From the NCBI GenBank assembly GCA_937871685.1, contig CALMOL010000128.1, positions 1 through 40,593 on the forward strand: DNA of 40,593 nt. Reading direction: 5' to 3'. This DNA comes from an uncultured Verrucomicrobiota bacterium (GTDB taxonomy: Bacteria; Verrucomicrobiota; Verrucomicrobiia; Chthoniobacterales; SZAS-18). The notes under the pieces are model-generated. The model ran no database searches. It was not told the DNA's origin and was given only the letters and a program-made list of their open reading frames with translations. Position numbers and translations under genes: made by a program. This document shows, in pieces, positions 2,525 through 8,551 of this stretch (position 1 is the first letter of the stretch; the number at the start of each line of letters is the position of its first letter).

Positions 2525-3357
2525 CTCAGCCTCCTCGGCTGGCACGCCGGGCACCAGCACGTCGTGCGGCCGCCGACGGTCTCGCGCACTAGGCCGCCGC
2601 GGCAGCGTGGGCATTTGCCGCCGTCCTCCCAGCGATGCGGGAAAAGCCAGGAGTCCGGGTATTTCCAGTCGGGCGAGATCACGCGCACGGCGTCGCGCGT
2701 GACGCGGCGGACTGTGCGCCAGAGGTCAGCGACCTCGGCGGGGTCGAGTGACCCAGCCGGGGTCTCGGGATGAAGGCCGGCGCGCCAAAGGATCTCGTCG
2801 GCCATCCAGTTGCCGATGCCGGGGAAGCGCTCTTGCATGAGAAGCACCGCCTTAAGTGGGGCGCGCTTGCGCCGGGTAAGAAACGCACCGAGCGCCTTTG
2901 TGGTAAATTCGCCCGAGAGCAAGTTCGGGGGCAGATCGCGCCACCAGGCGGGATCTTCCGCGCCAGGATGGAAAAGCACGCGCCCAAAGTGCCGAGTGTC
3001 GCGGAAGACGAGCTTCCGGCCGCCGCGTTGATGCAGCACAAGGTGATCATGCTTGCCGCGCTCCCAGGGTTCCGGCGCGCCGGGCTCAGCCACAAGGAGG
3101 TCGCCCTGCATCCCGAGGTGCAGCCCCATGTGTGCGTGCGGCGGGGCGTCCGGCGCGGGGCCGAAGCGAAACAGCATCTGCTTGCCATGCGCCGCCGAGG
3201 AAAGGAGCACCGAGCCGACGAGCGCGCGCTCGAAGGCGCGCAGATCCACGCCGCGGAACACACGCACCTTCGGGCTGGTCGAGAGCGACTCAATTACCCC
3301 GCCGCGGCCCACGTCCCACAGGCGGCGGGCGAGTTCGACTTCGGCGAGTTCGGGCAT
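2521..3357 (-). CDS. mutM: formamidopyrimidine-DNA glycosylase (Fpg/MutM)
   Basis: 278 aa with N-terminal MPELAEVE (catalytic Pro2 signature) and a C-terminal zinc finger CPRCRGGL...CWCPACQ. Confidence 0.9.
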   Translation of the reverse strand: MPELAEVELARRLWDVGRGGVIESLSTSPKVRVFRGVDLRAFERALVGSVLLSSAAHGKQMLFRFGPAPDAPPHAHMGLHLGMQGDLLVAEPGAPEPWERGKHDHLVLHQRGGRKLVFRDTRHFGRVLFHPGAEDPAWWRDLPPNLLSGEFTTKALGAFLTRRKRAPLKAVLLMQERFPGIGNWMADEILWRAGLHPETPAGSLDPAEVADLWRTVRRVTRDAVRVISPDWKYPDSWLFPHRWEDGGKCPRCRGGLVRETVGGRTTCWCPACQPRRLS

Positions 3358-3444: not shown

Positions 3445-3516
3445 GCCAGGGTAGCTCAGAGGTAGAGCAGGGGACTCATAAGCCCTTGGTCGGGAGTTCA
3501 ATTCTCCCCCCTGGCA
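3445..3516 (+). tRNA. canonical tRNA with CAT anticodon (Met, or Ile2 if lysidine-modified)
   Basis: Acceptor GCCAGGG/CCCTGGC, D arm GCTC-AGAGGTA-GAGC with GG, anticodon loop CTCATAA, T arm GGGAG-TTCAATT-CTCCC, A73. CCA is not encoded. G1:C72 argues against an initiator. Confidence 0.85.
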
Positions 3517-3840
3517 CTCCCAGAACAGAGGGCCGACGACAGGGTAAAAAGGACAAAGTCTCCATCGGAATCCGCTGCCCGTCGCTGAATCGCGGCGTTG
3601 CCGCAGGTGTCATCAAACATCCACCACAAAAGCCTGAAAGGCTTGGATTCGCCGAGACTGAAGGCGATCTACGTCGCCAATGGCACCATGGCGATCTGAG
3701 TCGGCTGCACGCGACGCGAGGCTCCCGCGAGCCAATTGGATGTCAACATCTGGAATGCCAGACAGCGATAGTGCCGACCGATGATGACACCTGCTGGACG
3801 GTGGGATCCAGGCGAATGACCGGGCGATTGCCGTCGTTTT

Positions 3841-4739: not shown

Positions 4740-5073
4740 CGATTCGGACGCAAAATCTAACGGACCTCGCGGGCCTCGCTCGAACTCTTTGTCCACGGCT
4801 AACGTGGCGCTGGAACGGGCAAAGTCAATCGCTCCTTCGGAGCGATATTAGGACCGCTTTGTCTGGGATTTAATTCCCCGCGGGAGGGAACACCCTTTTT
4901 CAATTCCAAAGGCCTTTATAGGAGGTGAGCCTGAATCACCGAAACAGCCGCCGTGAAAAACCTGCGGGCTGGTCCTCGAAAGAGGAGCAGGGGTGTTCAT
5001 TCATTGTTATTTCCGCGTGGGCAGGAGCGAGGCGAAGCCACACCACGGTTGCCCCTCCCCCAGCGCGATGATT

Positions 5074-5147
5074 GCGGTCGTCGTCCAACAGCAAGACGGC
5101 GCGTTGCCAACGCGCAGACCCCGGGGCGGCGCCGGGCGATCGCACCA
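5074..5147 (+). tRNA. tRNA-like, anticodon GCC (Gly)
   Basis: Acceptor GCGGTCG/CGATCGC (one G.T), anticodon arm GCGCG-TTGCCAA-CGCGC, T arm CCCGG-GGCGGCG-CCGGG, A73, CCA encoded. The D-loop has no GG. Confidence 0.6.
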
Positions 5148-5149
5148 AC

Positions 5150-5223
5150 ACGGCGGGCACCAGCTTGTGCGGCGAGGTCTCCAAAACCTTGCCGGCTCGG
5201 AGCAGCACCGAGACGCCGTGCCA
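5150..5223 (+). tRNA. tRNA-like, anticodon CCA (Trp)
   Basis: Acceptor ACGGCG/CGCCGT with A1:T72, anticodon loop CTCCAAA, T arm CTCGG-AGCAGCA-CCGAG, G73, CCA encoded. Confidence 0.55.
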
Positions 5224-5238
5224 GTTTTCTCAAGAAAT

Positions 5239-5314
5239 GGGGGCGCATGTTCCAGAGGGGCGATGCTGCCTTGCAAGCAGCGTGTGGCGGGTGCGAGTCC
5301 CGTCGCCTCCACCA
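5239..5314 (+). tRNA. tRNA-like, anticodon TGC (Ala)
   Basis: Acceptor GGGGGCG/CGCCTCC including G3:T70, anticodon arm GCTGC-CTTGCAA-GCAGC, T arm GCGGG-TGCGAGT-CCCGT, A73, CCA. The D stem is poorly paired. Confidence 0.65.
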
Positions 5315-5323
5315 TTTTTCAAC

Positions 5324-5396
5324 TGCGGGAAGCCCTGGGGGCCAGCCGGTCTCATAAGCCGCGCTGCGCACGGTTCAAATCCGTGTCCCGCAACCA
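5324..5396 (+). tRNA. tRNA-like, anticodon CAT (Met/Ile2)
   Basis: Acceptor TGCGGGA/TCCCGCA, anticodon loop CTCATAA, canonical T arm CACGG-TTCAAAT-CCGTG, A73, CCA. Confidence 0.65.
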
Positions 5397-5413
5397 TTTC
5401 AGCTAATCCCAAA

Positions 5414-5506
5414 GAGGGGTCGTAGGCCCGTAAAGATCGGGCGCTGCCTGTAACGCAGATGCGGCGGACGCCGCCAACGTCGGAGCATTACCGACCGGCC
5501 CTACCA
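5414..5506 (+). tRNA. tRNA-like, anticodon GTA (Tyr), class II
   Basis: Anticodon arm CTGC-CTGTAAC-GCAG, long variable arm GCGGC-GGAC-GCCGC, D stem CCCG/CGGG, T arm GTCGG-AGCATTA-CCGAC, A73, CCA. The 5' acceptor strand is only partly complementary, so the 5' end is uncertain. Confidence 0.5.
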
Positions 5507-5510
5507 TTTT

Positions 5511-5582
5511 AGGTCCGTGGAGGATGAGTTCTCTCACCGCTCTGTCGAAGCGGGGAAGCGGGTGCGAGTCCCGCCGGGCCTG
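5511..5582 (+). tRNA. tRNA-like, anticodon GTC (Asp)
   Basis: Acceptor AGGTCCG/CGGGCCT (one G.T), T8, D stem GAGG/TCTC, anticodon arm CCGCT-CTGTCGA-AGCGG, T arm GCGGG-TGCGAGT-CCCGC, G73. No CCA. Confidence 0.65.
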
Positions 5583-5650
5583 GTCGTCAGGAGGCGCGGA
5601 AGGCCGCGGCCGTGGTCGGGGGGCCACGCCGCGGCCGCGCCATGGCGACA
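5583..5650 (+). other. acceptor-like 7-bp stem enclosing a long GC hairpin (not a cloverleaf)
   Basis: GTCGTCA/TGGCGAC closes a roughly 13-bp hairpin GGCCGCGG(c)CGTGG-tcgggggg-CCACGCCGCGGCC. It is followed by aGTTTTT and may be a terminator or processing element inside the array. Confidence 0.3.
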
Positions 5651-5665
5651 GTTTTTATCTTCAAA

Positions 5666-5738
5666 CGCGCGCGAGGGAGCCAGCGAACCCGCCTGCCTTG
5701 GGAGCAGGAAACGCCCGGCGCCACACCGGGGCGCGCGA
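5666..5738 (+). tRNA. tRNA-like, anticodon TGG (Pro)
   Basis: Perfect acceptor CGCGCGC/GCGCGCG (C1:G72), anticodon arm CCTGC-CTTGGGA-GCAGG (G37), T arm CCCGG-CGCCACA-CCGGG, A73. No CCA. Confidence 0.65.
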
Positions 5739-5760
5739 GATTTCCCAACCGCTTCACCAC

Positions 5761-5843
5761 GCCGGCGTGGCCGAAAGCGAAACCAGACCATGCGCGCCGC
5801 GAAGACCGGCGCGGCCTTGAAGGGGCAATTCCTTCCGCCGGCA
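5761..5843 (+). tRNA. tRNA-like element, anticodon unclear
   Basis: Perfect acceptor GCCGGCG/CGCCGGC, T arm GAAGG-GGCAATT-CCTTC, internal arm GCGCCG-CGAAGAC-CGGCGC (would read AAG with G33). The 5' region is oversized; A73. Confidence 0.35.
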
Positions 5844-5854
5844 GATTCTTCAAC

Positions 5855-5930
5855 GCCCACGAATACAAAGAGACGCGTGACCTGGCCTTCATCCAGGAGC
5901 TAGCCGGTGCGAGTCCGGCCGTGGGCGCCA
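5855..5930 (+). tRNA. tRNA-like, anticodon TTC (Glu)
   Basis: Perfect acceptor GCCCACG/CGTGGGC, anticodon arm CCTGG-CCTTCAT-CCAGG (C at position 33), T arm GCCGG-TGCGAGT-CCGGC, G73, CCA. Confidence 0.6.
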
Positions 5931-5944
5931 TTTTCCTTCCCTGC

Positions 5945-6015
5945 TGCCAGGTGGCGTAACCGCAACGCATCCGGCCCACACCCGGAAGTCCAGGGTGCAA
6001 CTCCCTGCCTGGCAA
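5945..6015 (+). tRNA. tRNA-like, anticodon CAC (Val)
   Basis: Perfect acceptor TGCCAGG/CCTGGCA, D stem GCGT/ACGC, anticodon arm TCCGG-CCCACAC-CCGGA (C33), T arm CAGGG-TGCAACT-CCCTG, A73. No CCA. Confidence 0.6.
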
Positions 6016-6022
6016 GACTTTC

Positions 6023-6093
6023 CGCTTCGTAGCTCAATAGCAGAGCAGCCGGCTGATAACCGGCCGACGGCGGCGCGATACCGCCCGAAGCGA
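6023..6093 (+). tRNA. tRNA-like, anticodon GAT (Ile)
   Basis: Perfect acceptor CGCTTCG/CGAAGCG, TA, D arm GCTC-AATAGCA-GAGC, anticodon arm GCCGG-CTGATAA-CCGGC, T arm GGCGG-CGCGATA-CCGCC, A73. No CCA. Confidence 0.7.
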
Positions 6094-6105
6094 TTTTCCC
6101 CATTC

Positions 6106-6180
6106 CGCTGCGTAGCTTATGCAGAAGAGCGTTGCCCTGAAGAGGCAAAGGAGCCGGTGCGACTCCGGCAGCAGCGGCCA
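6106..6180 (+). tRNA. tRNA-like, anticodon GAA (Phe)
   Basis: Acceptor CGCTGCG/AGCAGCG (6 of 7 pairs), D arm GCTT/GAGC, anticodon arm TTGCC-CTGAAGA-GGCAA, T arm GCCGG-TGCGACT-CCGGC, G73, CCA. Confidence 0.65.
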
Positions 6181-6190
6181 TTTTTTCAAA

Positions 6191-6262
6191 GCGCGACTGA
6201 TGTATCAGCTCGCATGGCGGTCTTCCAAACCGCTCGGCCCGGGGCAGCACCGGGGTCGCGCA
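6191..6262 (+). tRNA. tRNA-like, anticodon TCC (Gly)
   Basis: Perfect acceptor GCGCGAC/GTCGCGC, D stem ATGT/GCAT, anticodon arm GCGGT-CTTCCAA-ACCGC, T arm CCCGG-GGCAGCA-CCGGG, A73. No CCA. Confidence 0.65.
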
Positions 6263-6273
6263 CGTCTTTCCAT

Positions 6274-6346
6274 TCCCGCGTGGCAGATCGAGCTCATGGC
6301 CCCTCCCGTAAAGGGGACCACGCCGGTGCAACTCCGGCCGCGGGAT
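6274..6346 (+). tRNA. tRNA-like, anticodon CGT (Thr)
   Basis: Perfect acceptor TCCCGCG/CGCGGGA, anticodon arm CCCCT-CCCGTAA-AGGGG (C33), T arm GCCGG-TGCAACT-CCGGC, T73. The D arm is poorly defined. Confidence 0.55.
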
Positions 6347-6357
6347 CATCTTTTCAT

Positions 6358-6438
6358 CGGCTCGTGGTTTAGCGGGAACAGCAGACCGTTCCGCCTCAGA
6401 AGCGGAGAGCCTTGGGAGTGCAAGTCTCCCCGAGCCGA
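6358..6438 (+). tRNA. tRNA-like, anticodon CAG (Leu) without a long variable arm
   Basis: Perfect acceptor CGGCTCG/CGAGCCG, anticodon arm TCCGC-CTCAGAA-GCGGA, T arm GGGAG-TGCAAGT-CTCCC, A73. The extra nucleotides sit between the D and anticodon arms rather than in the variable region. Confidence 0.5.
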
Positions 6439-6447
6439 CGATTTCAT

Positions 6448-6524
6448 CACGCGCATGCCAAAGGAGCCGAGGCGGCGGATTGCAAACCCGCTCTTACCCG
6501 GTGCGAGTCCGGGGCGCGTGTCCA
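6448..6524 (+). tRNA. tRNA-like, anticodon GCA (Cys)
   Basis: Perfect acceptor CACGCGC/GCGCGTG, anticodon loop TTGCAAA on a GCGG/CCGC stem, T arm CCCGG-TGCGAGT-CCGGG, T73 (a Cys-type discriminator), CCA. Confidence 0.6.
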
Positions 6525-6532
6525 TTTTCAGC

Positions 6533-6604
6533 GGGGGCGTCGTCCAAGAGCCGGATGCCGCGCCGACATCGCGAAGATCGAGGCGCCAACTCCTCGCTTC
6601 CCCT
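6533..6604 (+). tRNA. tRNA-like, anticodon GAC (Val)
   Basis: Acceptor GGGGGCG/CTTCCCC (6 of 7 pairs including one G.T), D stem GTCC/GGAT, anticodon arm CGCG-CCGACAT-CGCG (C33), T arm CGAGG-CGCCAACT-CCTCG (8-nt loop). Confidence 0.45.
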
Positions 6605-6614
6605 CCTCTTTCAT

Positions 6615-6689
6615 TGACCAGTAGCTCAACAGTAGAGCCGCCGGCTGTTAACCGGAAGGCTGATGGTGCGAATCCATCCTGGTCAGCCA
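6615..6689 (+). tRNA. tRNA-like, anticodon GTT (Asn)
   Basis: Perfect acceptor TGACCAG/CTGGTCA, TA, D arm GCTC-AACAGTA-GAGC, anticodon loop CTGTTAA on CCGG/CCGG, T arm GATGG-TGCGAAT-CCATC, G73, CCA. Confidence 0.7.
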
Positions 6690-6697
6690 TTTCCCAT

Positions 6698-6781
6698 TCC
6701 GTCGAGGCGTCCGCAGCGACGCGGCCTGTGGGATGCGGGGCGAACCCCGTCGCAAGCCCGGGCAACGGATCGGAGTTTATA
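6698..6781 (+). other. GC-rich multi-hairpin spacer (no cloverleaf found)
   Basis: Contains hairpins GCGTC-cgcagc-GACGC and CGGGG-cgaa-CCCCG plus the palindrome GCCCGGGC. I found no 7-bp acceptor pairing or anticodon loop. Confidence 0.25.
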
Positions 6782-7007
6782 CCAACATGCAATCGAAGCT
6801 ACAAGATGGCGCATTCCGGCCGTTGTAGAGGCGGCTCTGTCCGCGAATGCGGACGTGCCGCCTGAAGCTTTCTCCCGGGTGGATGCTGCGGGATGCCCAA
6901 CTGGCGTCCACCCAAGAAGGGATCAGAGGCGGCACGTCCGCATTCGCGGACAGAGCCGCCTCTACAACCGGGGACTCGCCGATCTCGCAACTCTGATCGC
7001 GTGTTGG
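6782..7007. repeat. 226-bp nested imperfect palindrome (MITE/REP-doublet-like) inside the tRNA-like array
   Basis: Core arms 6822-6865 and 6923-6968 are reverse complements except for a 2-nt indel. Each arm is itself a hairpin (GGCGGC..GTCCGC-gaat-GCGGAC..GCCGCC). The inner stem is GGGTGGA/TCCACCC, and the outer pairing CCAACATGC/GCGTGTTGG carries mismatches. Confidence 0.7.
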
Positions 7008-7013
7008 TTTCAC

Positions 7014-7087
7014 GCGCGAGTAGCTCAGCGGAAGAGAGCGCCAGCGTTCTAATCTGGATGTCGCAGGCTCGAATTCTGCCTTGCGCG
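7014..7087 (+). tRNA. tRNA-like, anticodon TCT (Arg)
   Basis: Acceptor GCGCGAG/CTTGCGC (one G.T), TA, D arm GCTC-AGCGGAAGA-GAGC (GG present), anticodon loop GTTCTAA, T arm GCAGG-CTCGAAT-TCTGC, G73. This is the most canonical unit of the array. Confidence 0.7.
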
Positions 7088-7127
7088 TCACCGCCGAGAC
7101 CGAGCCGCGGCCCACGCACATTTTTTC

Positions 7128-7202
7128 GGGTCCATCGTCCAACACGTAGGACAGCCGGCTTTTACCCGGTCGATCTCGGTGCGAATCCGAGTGGGCCCAC
7201 CA
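7128..7202 (+). tRNA. tRNA-like, anticodon TTT (Lys)
   Basis: Acceptor GGGTCCA/TGGGCCC (one G.T), D stem GTCC/GGAC, anticodon arm GCCGG-CTTTTAC-CCGGT, T arm CTCGG-TGCGAAT-CCGAG, A73, CCA. Confidence 0.7.
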
Positions 7203-7210
7203 CTTTCCCT

Positions 7211-7302
7211 GGATGCCGTAGCGGACAAGCGCGCCGCCGCCGGTTGGAAGCCGGCTGAGACTGCCCCCATGGCGGTCTGCGGTGCAAGTCCGCCGGCATC
7301 CG
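7211..7302 (+). tRNA. tRNA-like, anticodon GGA (Ser), class II
   Basis: Perfect acceptor GGATGCC/GGCATCC, anticodon arm GCCGG-TTGGAAG-CCGGC, 7-bp long variable arm GACTGCC-cccat-GGCGGTC, T-loop TGCAAGT, G73. Confidence 0.6.
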
Positions 7303-7310
7303 GATTTTTT

Positions 7311-7388
7311 GGGCGCGAGGTGTCAACAGCTTCGCACACACGGCTCTTACCCGTTGAGGCTGGGGTGCAATTCCCCACGCGCCCACCA
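7311..7388 (+). tRNA. tRNA-like, anticodon probably CTT (Lys)
   Basis: Perfect acceptor GGGCGCG/CGCGCCC, D stem GTGT/ACAC with a 12-nt loop, anticodon loop CTCTTAC on a short stem, T arm TGGGG-TGCAATT-CCCCA, A73, CCA. Confidence 0.45.
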
Positions 7389-7392
7389 CCTT

Positions 7393-7484
7393 GGAGAGTC
7401 AACCGGACAAGCGTGCCGGAACCGCCTCGAAAACGGTTTGGACCTGGGAACAGGTCTGCGGGGCGGGACCGCGACTCTCCGCCA
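7393..7484 (+). tRNA. tRNA-like, anticodon CGA (Ser), class II
   Basis: Perfect acceptor GGAGAGT/ACTCTCC, D stem CCGG/CCGG, anticodon loop CTCGAAA, long variable arm GACCTG-ggaa-CAGGTC, T arm TGCGG-GGCGGGA-CCGCG, G73, CCA. Confidence 0.65.
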
Positions 7485-7491
7485 TTTCAAC

Positions 7492-7563
7492 GCCGACGTG
7501 GAGGATAATCTCGCCGCCCTTGTAGCGCGGAGGATGCGGGTGAAAGCCCCGCCGCCGGCTCCA
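7492..7563 (+). tRNA. tRNA-like, anticodon TGT (Thr)
   Basis: Acceptor GCCGACG/CGCCGGC (6 of 7 pairs), T8, anticodon loop CTTGTAG on CCGC/GCGG, T arm GCGGG-TGAAAGC-CCCGC, T73, CCA. Confidence 0.55.
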
Positions 7564-7574
7564 ATTTTTCAAAA

Positions 7575-7647
7575 GCTCGGGTAGCCCAACCGCAGAGGCA
7601 AGGCGTCGAGAACGCCGCCAGTGAGGGTGCAACTCCCTTCCCGAGCA
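7575..7647 (+). tRNA. tRNA-like, anticodon GAG (Leu) without a long variable arm
   Basis: Perfect acceptor GCTCGGG/CCCGAGC, TA, anticodon arm GGCG-TCGAGAA-CGCC (C33), T arm GAGGG-TGCAACT-CCCTT, A73. Class I length (73 nt). Confidence 0.5.
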
Positions 7648-7660
7648 CTTCTTTTTCAAA

Positions 7661-7732
7661 GTTCCCGAAGCGCAATAGACGCGCGCCGCCCTGCGAAGGC
7701 GGAGGGTGCTGGTGCAACTCCAGCCGGGAACA
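7661..7732 (+). tRNA. tRNA-like, anticodon GCG (Arg)
   Basis: Perfect acceptor GTTCCCG/CGGGAAC, D arm GCGC-AATAGAC-GCGC, anticodon arm CCGCC-CTGCGAA-GGCGG, T arm GCTGG-TGCAACT-CCAGC, A73. Confidence 0.65.
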
Positions 7733-7743
7733 CGCTTTCCCAC

Positions 7744-7814
7744 AGCCCCATGGGGTAACGCAGCACGGCGGTCTTTGAAGCCGTTCGGTGATCGTTCGAG
7801 TCGATCTGGGGCTG
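7744..7814 (+). tRNA. tRNA-like, anticodon TTG (Gln)
   Basis: Perfect acceptor AGCCCCA/TGGGGCT (weak A1:T72), anticodon arm GCGGT-CTTTGAA-GCCGT (two G.T pairs), canonical T arm GATCG-TTCGAGT-CGATC, G73. Confidence 0.55.
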
Positions 7815-7824
7815 CTTTTCTCTC

Positions 7825-7885
7825 GGATCGTAAACCGGACAAGCAAGCCGGCGCGCGGTGCTAACGCGACGGACGACGGCCATCC
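7825..7885 (+). pseudogene. truncated tRNA-like unit, anticodon GCT (Ser)
   Basis: The 5' half parallels the Ser(CGA) unit (GGATCGT aa a CCGG-acaagcaag-CCGG, loop GTGCTAA). There is no variable or T arm before the acceptor-like GGCCATCC. Confidence 0.3.
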
Positions 7886-7969
7886 ATGCCGTGGTTGAGG
7901 GGCAGGCCCTCTGCGATCCGCATTTTCCCGATGGATGGACACCCGCCGCGCGGCGCCACCACTCTGCCC

Positions 7970-8551
7970 ATGAACCACCTCGACCAAATCACCGTCCTCG
8001 TGCTCAACCGCTCGTGGCAGGCGATCCACGCCAAGACGCCGGCGCAGGCCTTCGTCATGATGGCGTCAGACGCGGCCACCGCGCTCGACATCGAGAACGA
8101 CCGCATGACTCCGGTGCGTTGGGCCGACTGGCTCAAGCTGCCGGTGCGCGAGACCGACGCCCGCGTGCAAACCGCGCGCGGCCCGGTGCGCATTCCCACC
8201 GTGCTCGTGCTCGCCCGCTACGCCAAGGTGCCGCGCCGACGCCCGCGCTTCTCGCTGCGGGCGGTGTGGGAGCGCGACGGCGGCCGCTGCCAATACACCG
8301 GCCGCACGCTGGCGCTGGGCGAGGGCAACATCGACCACGTCCTCCCGCGCTCGCGCGGCGGCCGCACGAGCTGGGACAACTGCGTGCTCGCCGACCGCGC
8401 GGTGAACTCGCGCAAGGGCGACAAGCTCCCCGAAGAGGCGGGCCTCAAGCTCGCGCGCCGGCCGACCATGCCGCCCGCGCTGCCGGCGACGGTCGCGCTG
8501 CGGAACCCAAGGAACATTCCCGAGTGGGATCTCTTCCTGCGGCGCGGTTGA
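7970..8551 (+). CDS. HNH endonuclease
   Basis: HNH core GRCQYTGRTL...GNIDHVLPRSRGGRTSWDNCVLADRAVNSRKGDK. The start is taken at MNHLDQITVLVLNRSW (ATG 7970) rather than the ORF-track ATG 7886, which overlaps the last tRNA-like unit. Confidence 0.8.
   Translation: MNHLDQITVLVLNRSWQAIHAKTPAQAFVMMASDAATALDIENDRMTPVRWADWLKLPVRETDARVQTARGPVRIPTVLVLARYAKVPRRRPRFSLRAVWERDGGRCQYTGRTLALGEGNIDHVLPRSRGGRTSWDNCVLADRAVNSRKGDKLPEEAGLKLARRPTMPPALPATVALRNPRNIPEWDLFLRRG

Follow-up and report, generated by a model that had tools for sequence, protein, structure and literature searches.

An array of transfer RNA (tRNA) genes in a contig from an uncultured Verrucomicrobiota bacterium (GenBank CALMOL010000128.1) raises the question of how a tRNA elbow can be built when the nucleotides that normally hold it together are missing, and whether genes lacking them encode working tRNAs at all. 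We analysed positions 1 to 40,593 of this contig (hereafter the window), i.e., the first 40.6 kb of the 64-kb metagenome contig ENA ERZ22865502 NODE_28, which has a G+C content of ~68%. In a canonical tRNA, G18 of the D-loop intercalates between nucleotides 57 and 58 of the T-loop and bonds pseudouridine 55 (Psi55), and G19 pairs with C56; G18, G19, U55 and C56 are held to be virtually universal in non-mitochondrial tRNAs, and Psi55 to be the most conserved tRNA modification. An initial annotation of the array, made by reading the letters, had proposed that most of its units carry G in place of U55 and lack the D-loop GG. We found 28 units in 2.85 kb (5074-7922), co-oriented on the plus strand and covering 19 amino acids. 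Judged from sequence, the region is probably a long, horizontally acquired tRNA operon, whose units would be real, selected tRNAs of a widespread class with a differently built elbow.

Elbow nucleotides of the array

The general tRNA model of Rfam (RF00005), the tRNA finder ARAGORN, whether run at its default or at lowered thresholds, and a covariance model seeded with members of the G55 class (R1) all placed the T-stem in the same register, with G55 in 25 of the 28 units. Automated structural alignment did not restore a TTC loop; in the RF00005 alignment the loops read as U54-G55-C56, e.g., GGUGCGAAUCC and GGUGCAACUCC. As the initial annotation had noted, U55 was confined to the Met-CAT (TTCAAAT), Arg-TCT (CTCGAAT) and Gln (TTCGAGT) units, and C56 and A58 were mostly kept (27 and 22 of 28 units, respectively). 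Its claim that the D-loops lack GG also stood, but the implied loss of contact did not: a single G19 was kept and position 18 was mostly A, the typical D-loops of the window (AACAGCA, AAUAGCA and AACAGUA) having A18-G19 in place of G18-G19. In the class-model alignment, position 18 was C in Val-CAC, Lys-UUU and Leu-GAG. A D-loop GG was unambiguous only in Met-CAT and Arg-TCT, both of which are U55 units with regular D-loops. From the conserved elbow set of RF00005 (G18, G19, U54, U55, C56 and A58), the array thus retains G19, C56 and, mostly, A58. Since the G19:C56 pair is retained, the elbow seems to have been re-specified rather than lost.

The commonest T-loop, UGCRANN, was found in 16 of the 28 window units. 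C54-type loops comprised CGCGAUA (Ile) and the variants CGCCACA (Pro) and the 8-nt CGCCAACU (Val-GAC), while six units had loops of the G54 type (GGCAGCA, GGCGGCG, GGCGGGA, GGCAGGC, GGCAAUU and, in Trp, AGCAGCA), five of them also with G58. The remaining two odd loops were AGCAUUA (Tyr) and UGAAAGC (Thr-UGU).

In comparison, the housekeeping tRNA-Met close to the array (3445-3517) has a canonical elbow in the Rfam alignment. The same is true of the tRNA clusters of four isolated phages (Mycobacterium phage Alice, Caulobacter phage BL57, DSS3_MAL1 and Mesorhizobium phage Cp1R7A-A1), which have G55 in 0 of 84 tRNAs, and of the long tRNA array (L-array) of Anabaena, with UUC and GG in 23 of 24 tRNAs and G55 in 1 of 24. 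G55 in the window array is therefore far from chance. We rejected the idea that phage tRNAs or L-arrays have G55 in general, since these phages and the Anabaena array are canonical; the A18/G55 elbow accordingly defines a sub-class of arrays.

Covariation between D-loop and T-loop

We next asked whether the same substitutions recur together elsewhere. A viral set was obtained by scanning IMG/VR for two neighbouring T-arms of the form GGTGCRANTCC, which yielded at least 120 loci, with 969 tRNAs called by ARAGORN. An independent scan of one genome per species, requiring three neighbouring such arms, yielded a genome set of at least 119 loci, mostly from Verrucomicrobiota, Planctomycetota and Myxococcota, but also from Gemmatimonadota, Latescibacterota and others, isolates included; Opitutaceae bacterium EW11 and Verrucomicrobium sp. 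BvORR034 are examples of cultured carriers. Pooled, the sets held 2,219 array tRNAs from ~240 phage and bacterial loci (these and all counts below are among the matches and loci listed). In the viral set, U55-C56 occurred with a D-loop GG in 518 of 540 tRNAs and G55-C56 with AG in 346 of 377 (Fisher p ~1e-197). The genome set behaved similarly: G55 occurred with AG in 793 of 868 tRNAs, and U55 with GG in 290 of 317.

The association held when counting was limited to tRNAs whose D-stem has 4 bp and whose D-loop has 7 nt, which leaves no freedom of alignment: 271 were A18/G55 and 142 were G18/U55, and the mixed combinations amounted to 8 (A18/U55 and G18/G55, 4 each). The mutual information between positions 18 and 55 was 0.77 bits, compared with at most 0.10 for every other pair of D-loop and T-loop positions and a maximum of 0.036 in 1,000 permutations. 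Moreover, when G55 and U55 tRNAs of identical layout were compared, columns 18 and 55 were the only strongly discriminating ones. The near-absence of mixed combinations fits observations on a yeast suppressor tRNA, in which no single mutation was tolerated at G18-U55, G19-C56 or U54-A58 (PMC4117946). Detection bias of ARAGORN was rejected as an origin of this covariation: if a finder favours GG and UUC, it should pick up the mixed types more readily than A18/G55, yet the mixed types are rare.

Positions 19 and 56 covaried as a Watson-Crick pair (G:C, A:U, U:A and C:G), so that T-loops beginning UUU were matched with D-loop GA, UUA with GU, UUG with GC, UGA with AU, and UGG with AC or AU. The window's Thr-UGU unit, with T-loop UGAAAGC and a D-loop without G, obeys this rule and belongs to the UGA-loop/AU D-loop class. 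Hence, when positions 18/19 were tested against 55/56, the check that the initial annotation had proposed, 18 was linked specifically with 55, and 19 with 56. As for positions 54 and 58, the G55 tRNAs had U-A in 1118 cases, A-U in 83, C-A in 34 and A-A in 14. T-loops of the relatives began with tgcaa (531), tgcga (519), cgcga (18) or cgcaa (16), and the arm GGGGC[AG]GCACC occurred 103 times in 58 loci.

Overall, the A18/G55 design recurs in more than 1,100 tRNAs of unrelated loci, and every amino-acid identity is present in both classes in the viral set. The arrays concerned span 30-76% G+C, many phyla and phages; in view of this G+C range, G+C content was rejected as the cause. Among loci with at least 10 tRNAs, G55 fractions fell into two groups, most of them lying above 80% or below 30%; there are also mosaic arrays, in which G55 units form small blocks.

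A probable riboswitch-type T-loop

T-loops with G at their second position are known from other RNAs. In the flavin mononucleotide (FMN) and cobalamin riboswitches the T-loop reads YGNRA (UGNRA 88.7%, CGNRA 10.9%), the base that intercalates into it is nearly always an A, which forms a hydrogen bond with the sugar edge of the position-2 G, and a GGAAG T-loop is known from ribosomal RNA (bioRxiv 10.1101/2022.12.26.521914). The array follows the same Y-G-N-R-A consensus, with UGCRA in the 16 window loops mentioned above and CGCRA in one (Ile), and A18 covaries with G55, as the riboswitch-type motif predicts for its partner adenosine; likewise, the GGCAG loops of the array resemble the GGAAG type of ribosomal RNA. 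The array tRNAs appear, then, to use the riboswitch-type version of the T-loop (UGCRA, CGCRA and GGCAG, with A18) while keeping the tRNA-specific G19:C56 platform, onto which other molecules stack. In such an elbow, A18 would replace G18 as the presumed intercalating base, set against G55 in place of U55 in riboswitch fashion, and the outer face formed by G19:C56 would be kept or would covary. Because the loops match the riboswitch motif, the L-shape is expected to be preserved. The settings do differ: a riboswitch T-loop docks onto a receptor within one large RNA, whereas the array motif, known from sequence and covariation, sits at a tRNA elbow and keeps C56:G19.

Animal mitochondrial tRNAs and tRNA-Pyl have no G18G19 or T-psi-C sequence. 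In these, the elbow contact is lost or weakened and the loops are often short, whereas the array tRNAs have loops of normal size and keep both tertiary pairs by covariation. By chemistry, tRNAs with A18 and G55 cannot carry Psi55 or 2'-O-methylguanosine 18 (Gm18), and their recognition by TruB, RNase P, EF-Tu and the ribosome would presumably be affected.

Units of the array

The units proved easy to miss, as had been anticipated. By default, ARAGORN called 11 of the 28, and Rfam RF00005 found 9 at or above its gathering score of 29 bits, plus one more in a permissive search. The public gene call on the contig instead contains a 248-amino-acid open reading frame (6119-6865) spanning seven tRNA units, an annotation artefact, as the tRNAs beneath it went undetected. 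ARAGORN at lowered thresholds (-ps90, -ps80 and -ps75) recovered ~25 units, and R1 found 24 at E<0.001, all on the plus strand between 5074 and 7813. Beyond the R1 matches, Trp-CCA, Ser-GGA, Ser-CGA and Ser-GCU (7826-7922) were added by reading and orthologue alignment, which carries the array to 7922, past the end at 7732 given initially. The run lies between the canonical tRNA-Met and a gene for an HNH endonuclease, every unit being on the plus strand:

5074-5147 (+): tRNA-Gly(GCC); T-loop GGCGGCG, D-loop CAACAGCAA (A18 G19), CCA encoded; ARAGORN -ps90, R1 61.5 bits
5150-5223 (+): tRNA-Trp(CCA); T-loop AGCAGCA (orthologues GGCAGCA), A1:U72 and G73; 15-sequence orthologue alignment
5239-5314 (+): tRNA-Ala(UGC); T-loop UGCGAGU, G3:U70, CCA encoded; R1 29.7 bits at 5239-5310, direct reading
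5324-5396 (+): tRNA-Met/Ile2(CAU); canonical T-loop UUCAAAU, D-loop GG; ARAGORN -ps90, R1 15.8 bits
5416-5506 (+): tRNA-Tyr(GUA); long variable arm, T-loop AGCAUUA (A54/U58 swapped); ARAGORN -ps80, R1 19.2 bits
5510-5583 (+): tRNA-Asp(GUC); T-loop UGCGAGU; ARAGORN default, R1 53.3 bits
5666-5738 (+): tRNA-Pro(UGG); T-loop CGCCACA (orthologues GGCAGCA); orthologue alignment, R1 19.3 bits
5761-5843 (+): tRNA-like, possibly Leu(AAG); T-loop GGCAAUU, irregular D-arm and anticodon arm; ARAGORN -ps75, R1 30.7 bits
5855-5930 (+): tRNA-Glu(UUC); T-loop UGCGAGU, CCA encoded; R1 38.5 bits, 9 orthologues
5945-6015 (+): tRNA-Val(CAC); T-loop UGCAACU, D-loop AACCGCA (C18 G19); Rfam 53.5, R1 65.6 bits
6023-6093 (+): tRNA-Ile(GAU); T-loop CGCGAUA, D-loop AAUAGCA; Rfam 57.3, R1 74.6 bits
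6106-6180 (+): tRNA-Phe(GAA); T-loop UGCGACU; Rfam 47, R1 53.7 bits
6191-6262 (+): tRNA-Gly(UCC); T-loop GGCAGCA, D-loop with CAGC; R1 47.6 bits, 9 orthologues
6274-6346 (+): tRNA-Thr(CGU); T-loop UGCAACU; ARAGORN -ps90, R1 35.6 bits
6358-6438 (+): tRNA-Leu(CAG); without long variable arm, T-loop UGCAAGU; ARAGORN -ps90, R1 31.3 bits
6448-6524 (+): tRNA-Cys(GCA); T-loop UGCGAGU, U73, CCA encoded; ARAGORN -ps90, R1 30.1 bits, 11 orthologues
6533-6604 (+): tRNA-Val(GAC); 8-nt T-loop CGCCAACU; ARAGORN -ps80, R1 42.2 bits
6615-6689 (+): tRNA-Asn(GUU); T-loop UGCGAAU, D-loop AACAGUA; Rfam 60.4, R1 63.6 bits
7014-7087 (+): tRNA-Arg(UCU); T-loop CUCGAAU (U55), D-loop GG; Rfam 49.6 bits
7128-7202 (+): tRNA-Lys(UUU); T-loop UGCGAAU; Rfam 56.2, R1 65.6 bits
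7211-7302 (+): tRNA-Ser(GGA); long variable arm, T-loop UGCAAGU; ARAGORN default
7311-7388 (+): tRNA-Lys(CUU); T-loop UGCAAUU, CCA encoded; R1 44.3 bits
7393-7484 (+): tRNA-Ser(CGA); long variable arm, T-loop GGCGGGA; direct reading, resembles an unannotated stretch of Mesorhizobium phage Cp1R7A-A1
7492-7563 (+): tRNA-Thr(UGU); T-loop UGAAAGC (G55 A56), D-loop without G (A18 U19); Rfam 34.7 bits
7575-7647 (+): tRNA-Leu(GAG); without long variable arm, C33, T-loop UGCAACU; Rfam 38.1 bits, 25 orthologues
7661-7732 (+): tRNA-Arg(GCG); T-loop UGCAACU; Rfam 58.1 bits
7744-7814 (+): tRNA-Gln(UUG); canonical T-loop UUCGAGU; Rfam 43.7 bits
7826-7922 (+): tRNA-Ser(GCU)-like; long variable arm, T-loop GGCAGGC; direct reading, D-arm repeated in all three Ser units

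Rfam scores, R1 matches and compensatory stem changes all identified these units as members of the tRNA family, with a cloverleaf and a 7-bp acceptor stem. Their anticodon loops mostly have the proper 7 nt, and U33 is present in nearly all, the exception being C33 in Leu-GAG. Identity elements are kept as well (G3:U70 in Ala, U73 in Cys, A1:U72 and G73 in Trp, and the long variable arm in Ser and Tyr), and CCA is encoded by about half of the units. The Ser(GCU)-like unit was missed by every automated caller, and its 5' part is conserved in 12 loci; for the unit at 5761-5843 no orthologue was found in the fetched array loci. A convincing His unit was not found in the array, the candidate at 6698-6769 being weak (class model E=0.59) and having no convincing fold.

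Two structural peculiarities were observed. In the Trp unit and its 14 orthologues, the covariation-supported D-stem adjoins the acceptor stem, the 8-9 linker being absent, and the anticodon stem has 6-7 pairs, making for an unusual cloverleaf. The Leu tRNAs are only 75-80 nt long and lack the usual bacterial long variable arm, both in the window (6358-6438 and 7575-7647) and in loci L039, L063 and Anabaena L125:45054-45590.

Relation to L-arrays and phage tRNA clusters

The locus runs from a leader RNA (4921-5002) through the 28 tRNAs (5074-7922) to the HNH gene:

7931-8551 (+): HNH endonuclease of an array-associated, homing-type family; Pfam HNH_4

The start of this gene is probably ATG at 7931 rather than GTG at 7886, because the Ser(GCU)-like unit overlaps the start of the listed open reading frame. 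Its product is 54% identical to the HNH protein of another array (L240) and 31% identical (E=6e-22) to the one beside the Anabaena L-array; the family is present in 56 array loci (the window and 55 others). L-arrays are defined by at least 20 co-oriented tRNA genes at a density of at least 2 per kb, and with 28 in 2.85 kb and an adjoining HNH gene of the array family, the locus fits the L-array type of Santamaria-Gomez et al. 2021 (PMC8421152). According to that study, L-arrays are long, co-oriented and horizontally spread, neighbour HNH genes and often rtcB, and are induced by translational stress; the Anabaena array is silent until translation is impaired, and 23 of its 26 tRNAs were aminoacylated (PMC8421152).

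The resemblance extends further. Like the locus, the trn operon on plasmid delta of Anabaena/Nostoc PCC 7120, an example of L-arrays (also termed 'tRNA array units', Tran et al. 2016), has tens of co-oriented tRNAs at ~10 per kb, and its Leu tRNAs too lack the long variable arm. L-arrays in general share with this locus a patchy distribution suggesting horizontal transfer, a homologous adjoining HNH gene and RtcB as a recurrent neighbour. What sets the window apart, besides its elbows, is its control region: the Anabaena array is regulated by direct repeats in its promoter (PMC8421152), whereas the window and 38 related loci carry the structured leader RNA.

The four phage tRNA clusters are similarly dense, with 13-26 tRNAs and often an HNH gene. 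Single window units are 73-83% identical to phage tRNAs, and viral contigs, one of which has a portal gene, contain arrays with homologous units. An annotated phage or plasmid record in GenBank was rejected as an explanation of the array: BLAST gave single-tRNA similarities only, and the similar mycobacteriophage tRNA-Asn has the canonical UUCGAAU. Within the otherwise canonical Mesorhizobium phage Cp1R7A-A1, we observed a Met tRNA (T-loop AUCAUAA) as well as a Ser(CGA)-like unit (T-loop AUCAAGA) that lacks annotation and is similar to window 7393-7484, at L002:2257-2332 and 3001-3093.

A conserved leader RNA

4921-5002 (+): structured leader RNA; 82 nt, four helices, opens with a perfect Shine-Dalgarno-like GGAGGUG; BLAST, RNAalifold, covariance model

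BLAST showed this leader to be conserved across >25 loci. The covariance model R2, for which 15 homologues were used, scored 82.4 bits in the window and matched 38 further loci, with one copy each, in every case on the strand of the tRNAs and upstream of them (e.g., L039:692-779, L167:2731-2811 and L231:7544-7630, the latter two on the minus strand). In the leader alignment, 95.2% of cells were paired, compared with 36-51% when the partners were slid; double-change cells numbered 63, against 19.6 in shuffles, and one helix showed strong covariation. No Rfam family matched the leader at E<=10. The order leader, tRNAs, (Ro60/RtcB), HNH was seen in 38 loci. The leader is thus a candidate regulatory element of tRNA operons, apparently not previously described.

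Ro60 and RtcB in related arrays

Ro60 (TROVE plus vWA) was found in or beside 35 array loci and RtcB in or beside 29; neither gene was found in the window. In many G55 arrays they are embedded in or lie beside the array, on the same strand and downstream of the leader (L206, L209, L235, L237, L216, L220, L137, L150, L179, L242, L246 and others). Their presence suggests a combined operon for tRNA replacement and repair.

The same neighbours raise the possibility that the units are non-translational, tRNA-like RNAs, serving as decoys or as ligands or substrates of Ro60 and RtcB, comparable to the tRNA-like domains of bacterial Y RNAs. Such a role would also be in keeping with the poor scores of many units in general tRNA models and with irregular shapes, such as the missing 8-9 linker of the Trp unit and the lack of a long variable arm in the Leu units. 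We nevertheless regard it as unlikely: the array covers 19 amino acids with mostly proper anticodon loops, keeps synthetase identity elements, encodes CCA in about half of its units and maintains anticodon stems by compensatory change; in addition, the homologous kind of array in Anabaena gives aminoacylated tRNAs (PMC8421152), and the window itself has no Ro60 or RtcB gene.

Conservation and decay

Collinear homologous arrays, with 70-90% identity per unit, were found in a viral contig (L039) and in metagenome-assembled genomes of Chthoniobacteraceae, Akkermansiaceae and other Verrucomicrobiae, and the phage contig with the portal gene (L063) carries homologous units. The best 150 of 228 Rfam matches on 17 related loci were all to tRNA. 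For the Trp unit (15 orthologues), 13 of 20 predicted pairs showed pair-keeping double changes and 2 of 300 cells were broken; for the Pro unit (11 orthologues), 10 of 20 pairs were compensatory and 4 of 220 cells were broken. The GGCAGCA loop was invariant across the orthologues of Trp, Pro and Gly-UCC, while the stems below it varied. The pattern expected of pseudogenes, with stem-breaking changes as frequent as compensatory ones, was therefore not seen in the Trp and Pro orthologues, in which breaks were far rarer. Because the orthologues keep the cloverleaf through many compensatory changes, we conclude that the window units are not decaying pseudogenes. These stems, together with the covariation of 18 with 55 and of 19 with 56, support the coherent alternative tertiary design that the initial annotation had favoured over random decay.

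Several observations weigh against reading the array as a set of selected tRNAs. The median R1 score of the window units is ~41 bits, whereas relatives score roughly 50 as judged by eye; in the window, the T-loops of Pro and Trp deviate from the otherwise invariant GGCAGCA; and one Leu has C33, the unit at 5761-5843 is irregular, His was not found, and CCA is encoded in about half of the units. The window copy of the array looks somewhat worn. Regarding the class as a whole, the loci were chosen by a G55 T-loop search, so that the counts do not give the prevalence of the two classes, although the U55 tRNAs of the same loci act as internal controls. A switch of class is rare among close relatives, only 3 clusters at 88% core identity or more mixing the two, and much of the 18/55 signal thus reflects old lineages rather than many recent events. 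Finally, no elbow-reading enzyme or toxin was found among the conserved neighbours of the array loci, so the adaptive reason is a guess.

Do these irregularities mean that the array is the decaying remnant of an acquired tRNA cluster, its odd loops being damage? The units that stray from their family consensus and the absent His could be taken that way, as could the break in the array, a 320-bp gap containing a perfect 42-bp inverted repeat (arms 6822-6863 and 6927-6968, 63-nt spacer). We consider this very improbable, as the same substitutions occur at exactly two positions in the >1,100 tRNAs of unrelated loci, the Trp and Pro stems are compensated and scarcely broken, and the leader, gene order and HNH gene are conserved across loci. 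The inverted repeat itself, for which BLAST found no homologue in the fetched array loci, may be a strong hairpin or else a small element that was inserted.

Selection or descent

That whole arrays of ~20 isoacceptors share the variant implies either directional selection or descent from a single ancestor in which all had undergone the double change. Under the latter, the elbow would be a selectively neutral, near-isosteric variant that was fixed once in an ancestral mobile array and then hitch-hiked with array, phage and HNH gene, its tRNAs working without any advantage. The rarity of class switches between close homologues, the prevalence of arrays that are mostly G55 or mostly U55, as whole-array descent would give, and the lack of an elbow-specific factor among conserved neighbours all speak for such a history. 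Yet in its ancestor each isoacceptor would have had to acquire the double substitution independently, some 20 or more times in all; all identities exist in both classes, and single mutants at these positions were non-functional in the one system tested (PMC4117946). The breadth of the class in G+C content, phyla and phages, and the mosaic arrays with small G55 blocks, are likewise hard to reconcile with it. We view neutral descent as a serious alternative, though not a probable one.

To judge from the Anabaena L-array, the operon probably acts as a reserve tRNA set, called upon when damage befalls translation or the tRNA pool; a reserve role is also suggested by the recurrence of Ro60 and RtcB inside related arrays. 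More speculatively, and in preference to neutral descent, we suggest that the altered elbow may insulate such a set, whether a reserve or carried by phages, from enzymes or toxins recognizing canonical elbows. In its fullest and rather doubtful form, which we offer tentatively, the A18/G55 elbow would be an orthogonality device marking a mobile, stress-induced or phage-borne reserve set, independent of TruB and TrmH and escaping T-loop nucleases or tRNA depletion by phage or host. Expression would be under a leader that senses the state of translation, and with Ro60 and RtcB the whole would form a mobile module for tRNA replacement and repair.

Novelty and implications

tRNAs and the L-array are already known; the elbow design and the leader appear to be new. 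We found no description of A18/G55 tRNAs in the full-text searchable literature, whose reach excludes most subscription journals, so that an earlier description is possible; the main papers on L-arrays and on virus tRNA clusters do not discuss T-loops or D-loops. Bacterial and phage tRNA genes would thus include a large natural class in which one of the two elbow contacts is swapped by a specific covariation, suggesting that a tRNA elbow can be built with a riboswitch-type T-loop motif. It would also supply natural tRNAs obliged to function with neither Psi55 nor Gm18, in which the parts played by TruB and TrmH, and by recognition of the elbow on the side of RNase P, the ribosome and toxins, can be addressed by a two-nucleotide swap. 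On the practical side, standard tRNA finders miss more than half of such genes, and protein gene callers put open reading frames over them. Since the finders miss these genes, too few tRNAs are probably counted in Verrucomicrobiota, Planctomycetota, Myxococcota and many phages.

Surroundings of the array

Integration at the adjoining tRNA-Met was considered and rejected, as neither a repeat of its 3' end nor an integrase was found; repeat searches of the window found no att repeat. Between the Asp and Pro units (5584-5665) lies a G+C-rich hairpin followed by a T run, without a homologue in the fetched loci, which may be an internal terminator or processing site. Around the array lie genes of the ordinary kind found on a Gram-negative chromosome (a dynamin-like GTPase, NUDIX, Fpg, OmpH/Skp, an extracytoplasmic function (ECF) sigma factor, a two-component system, argH and ligA), and G+C content is 57-66% across the array island compared with 67-72% in the flanks.

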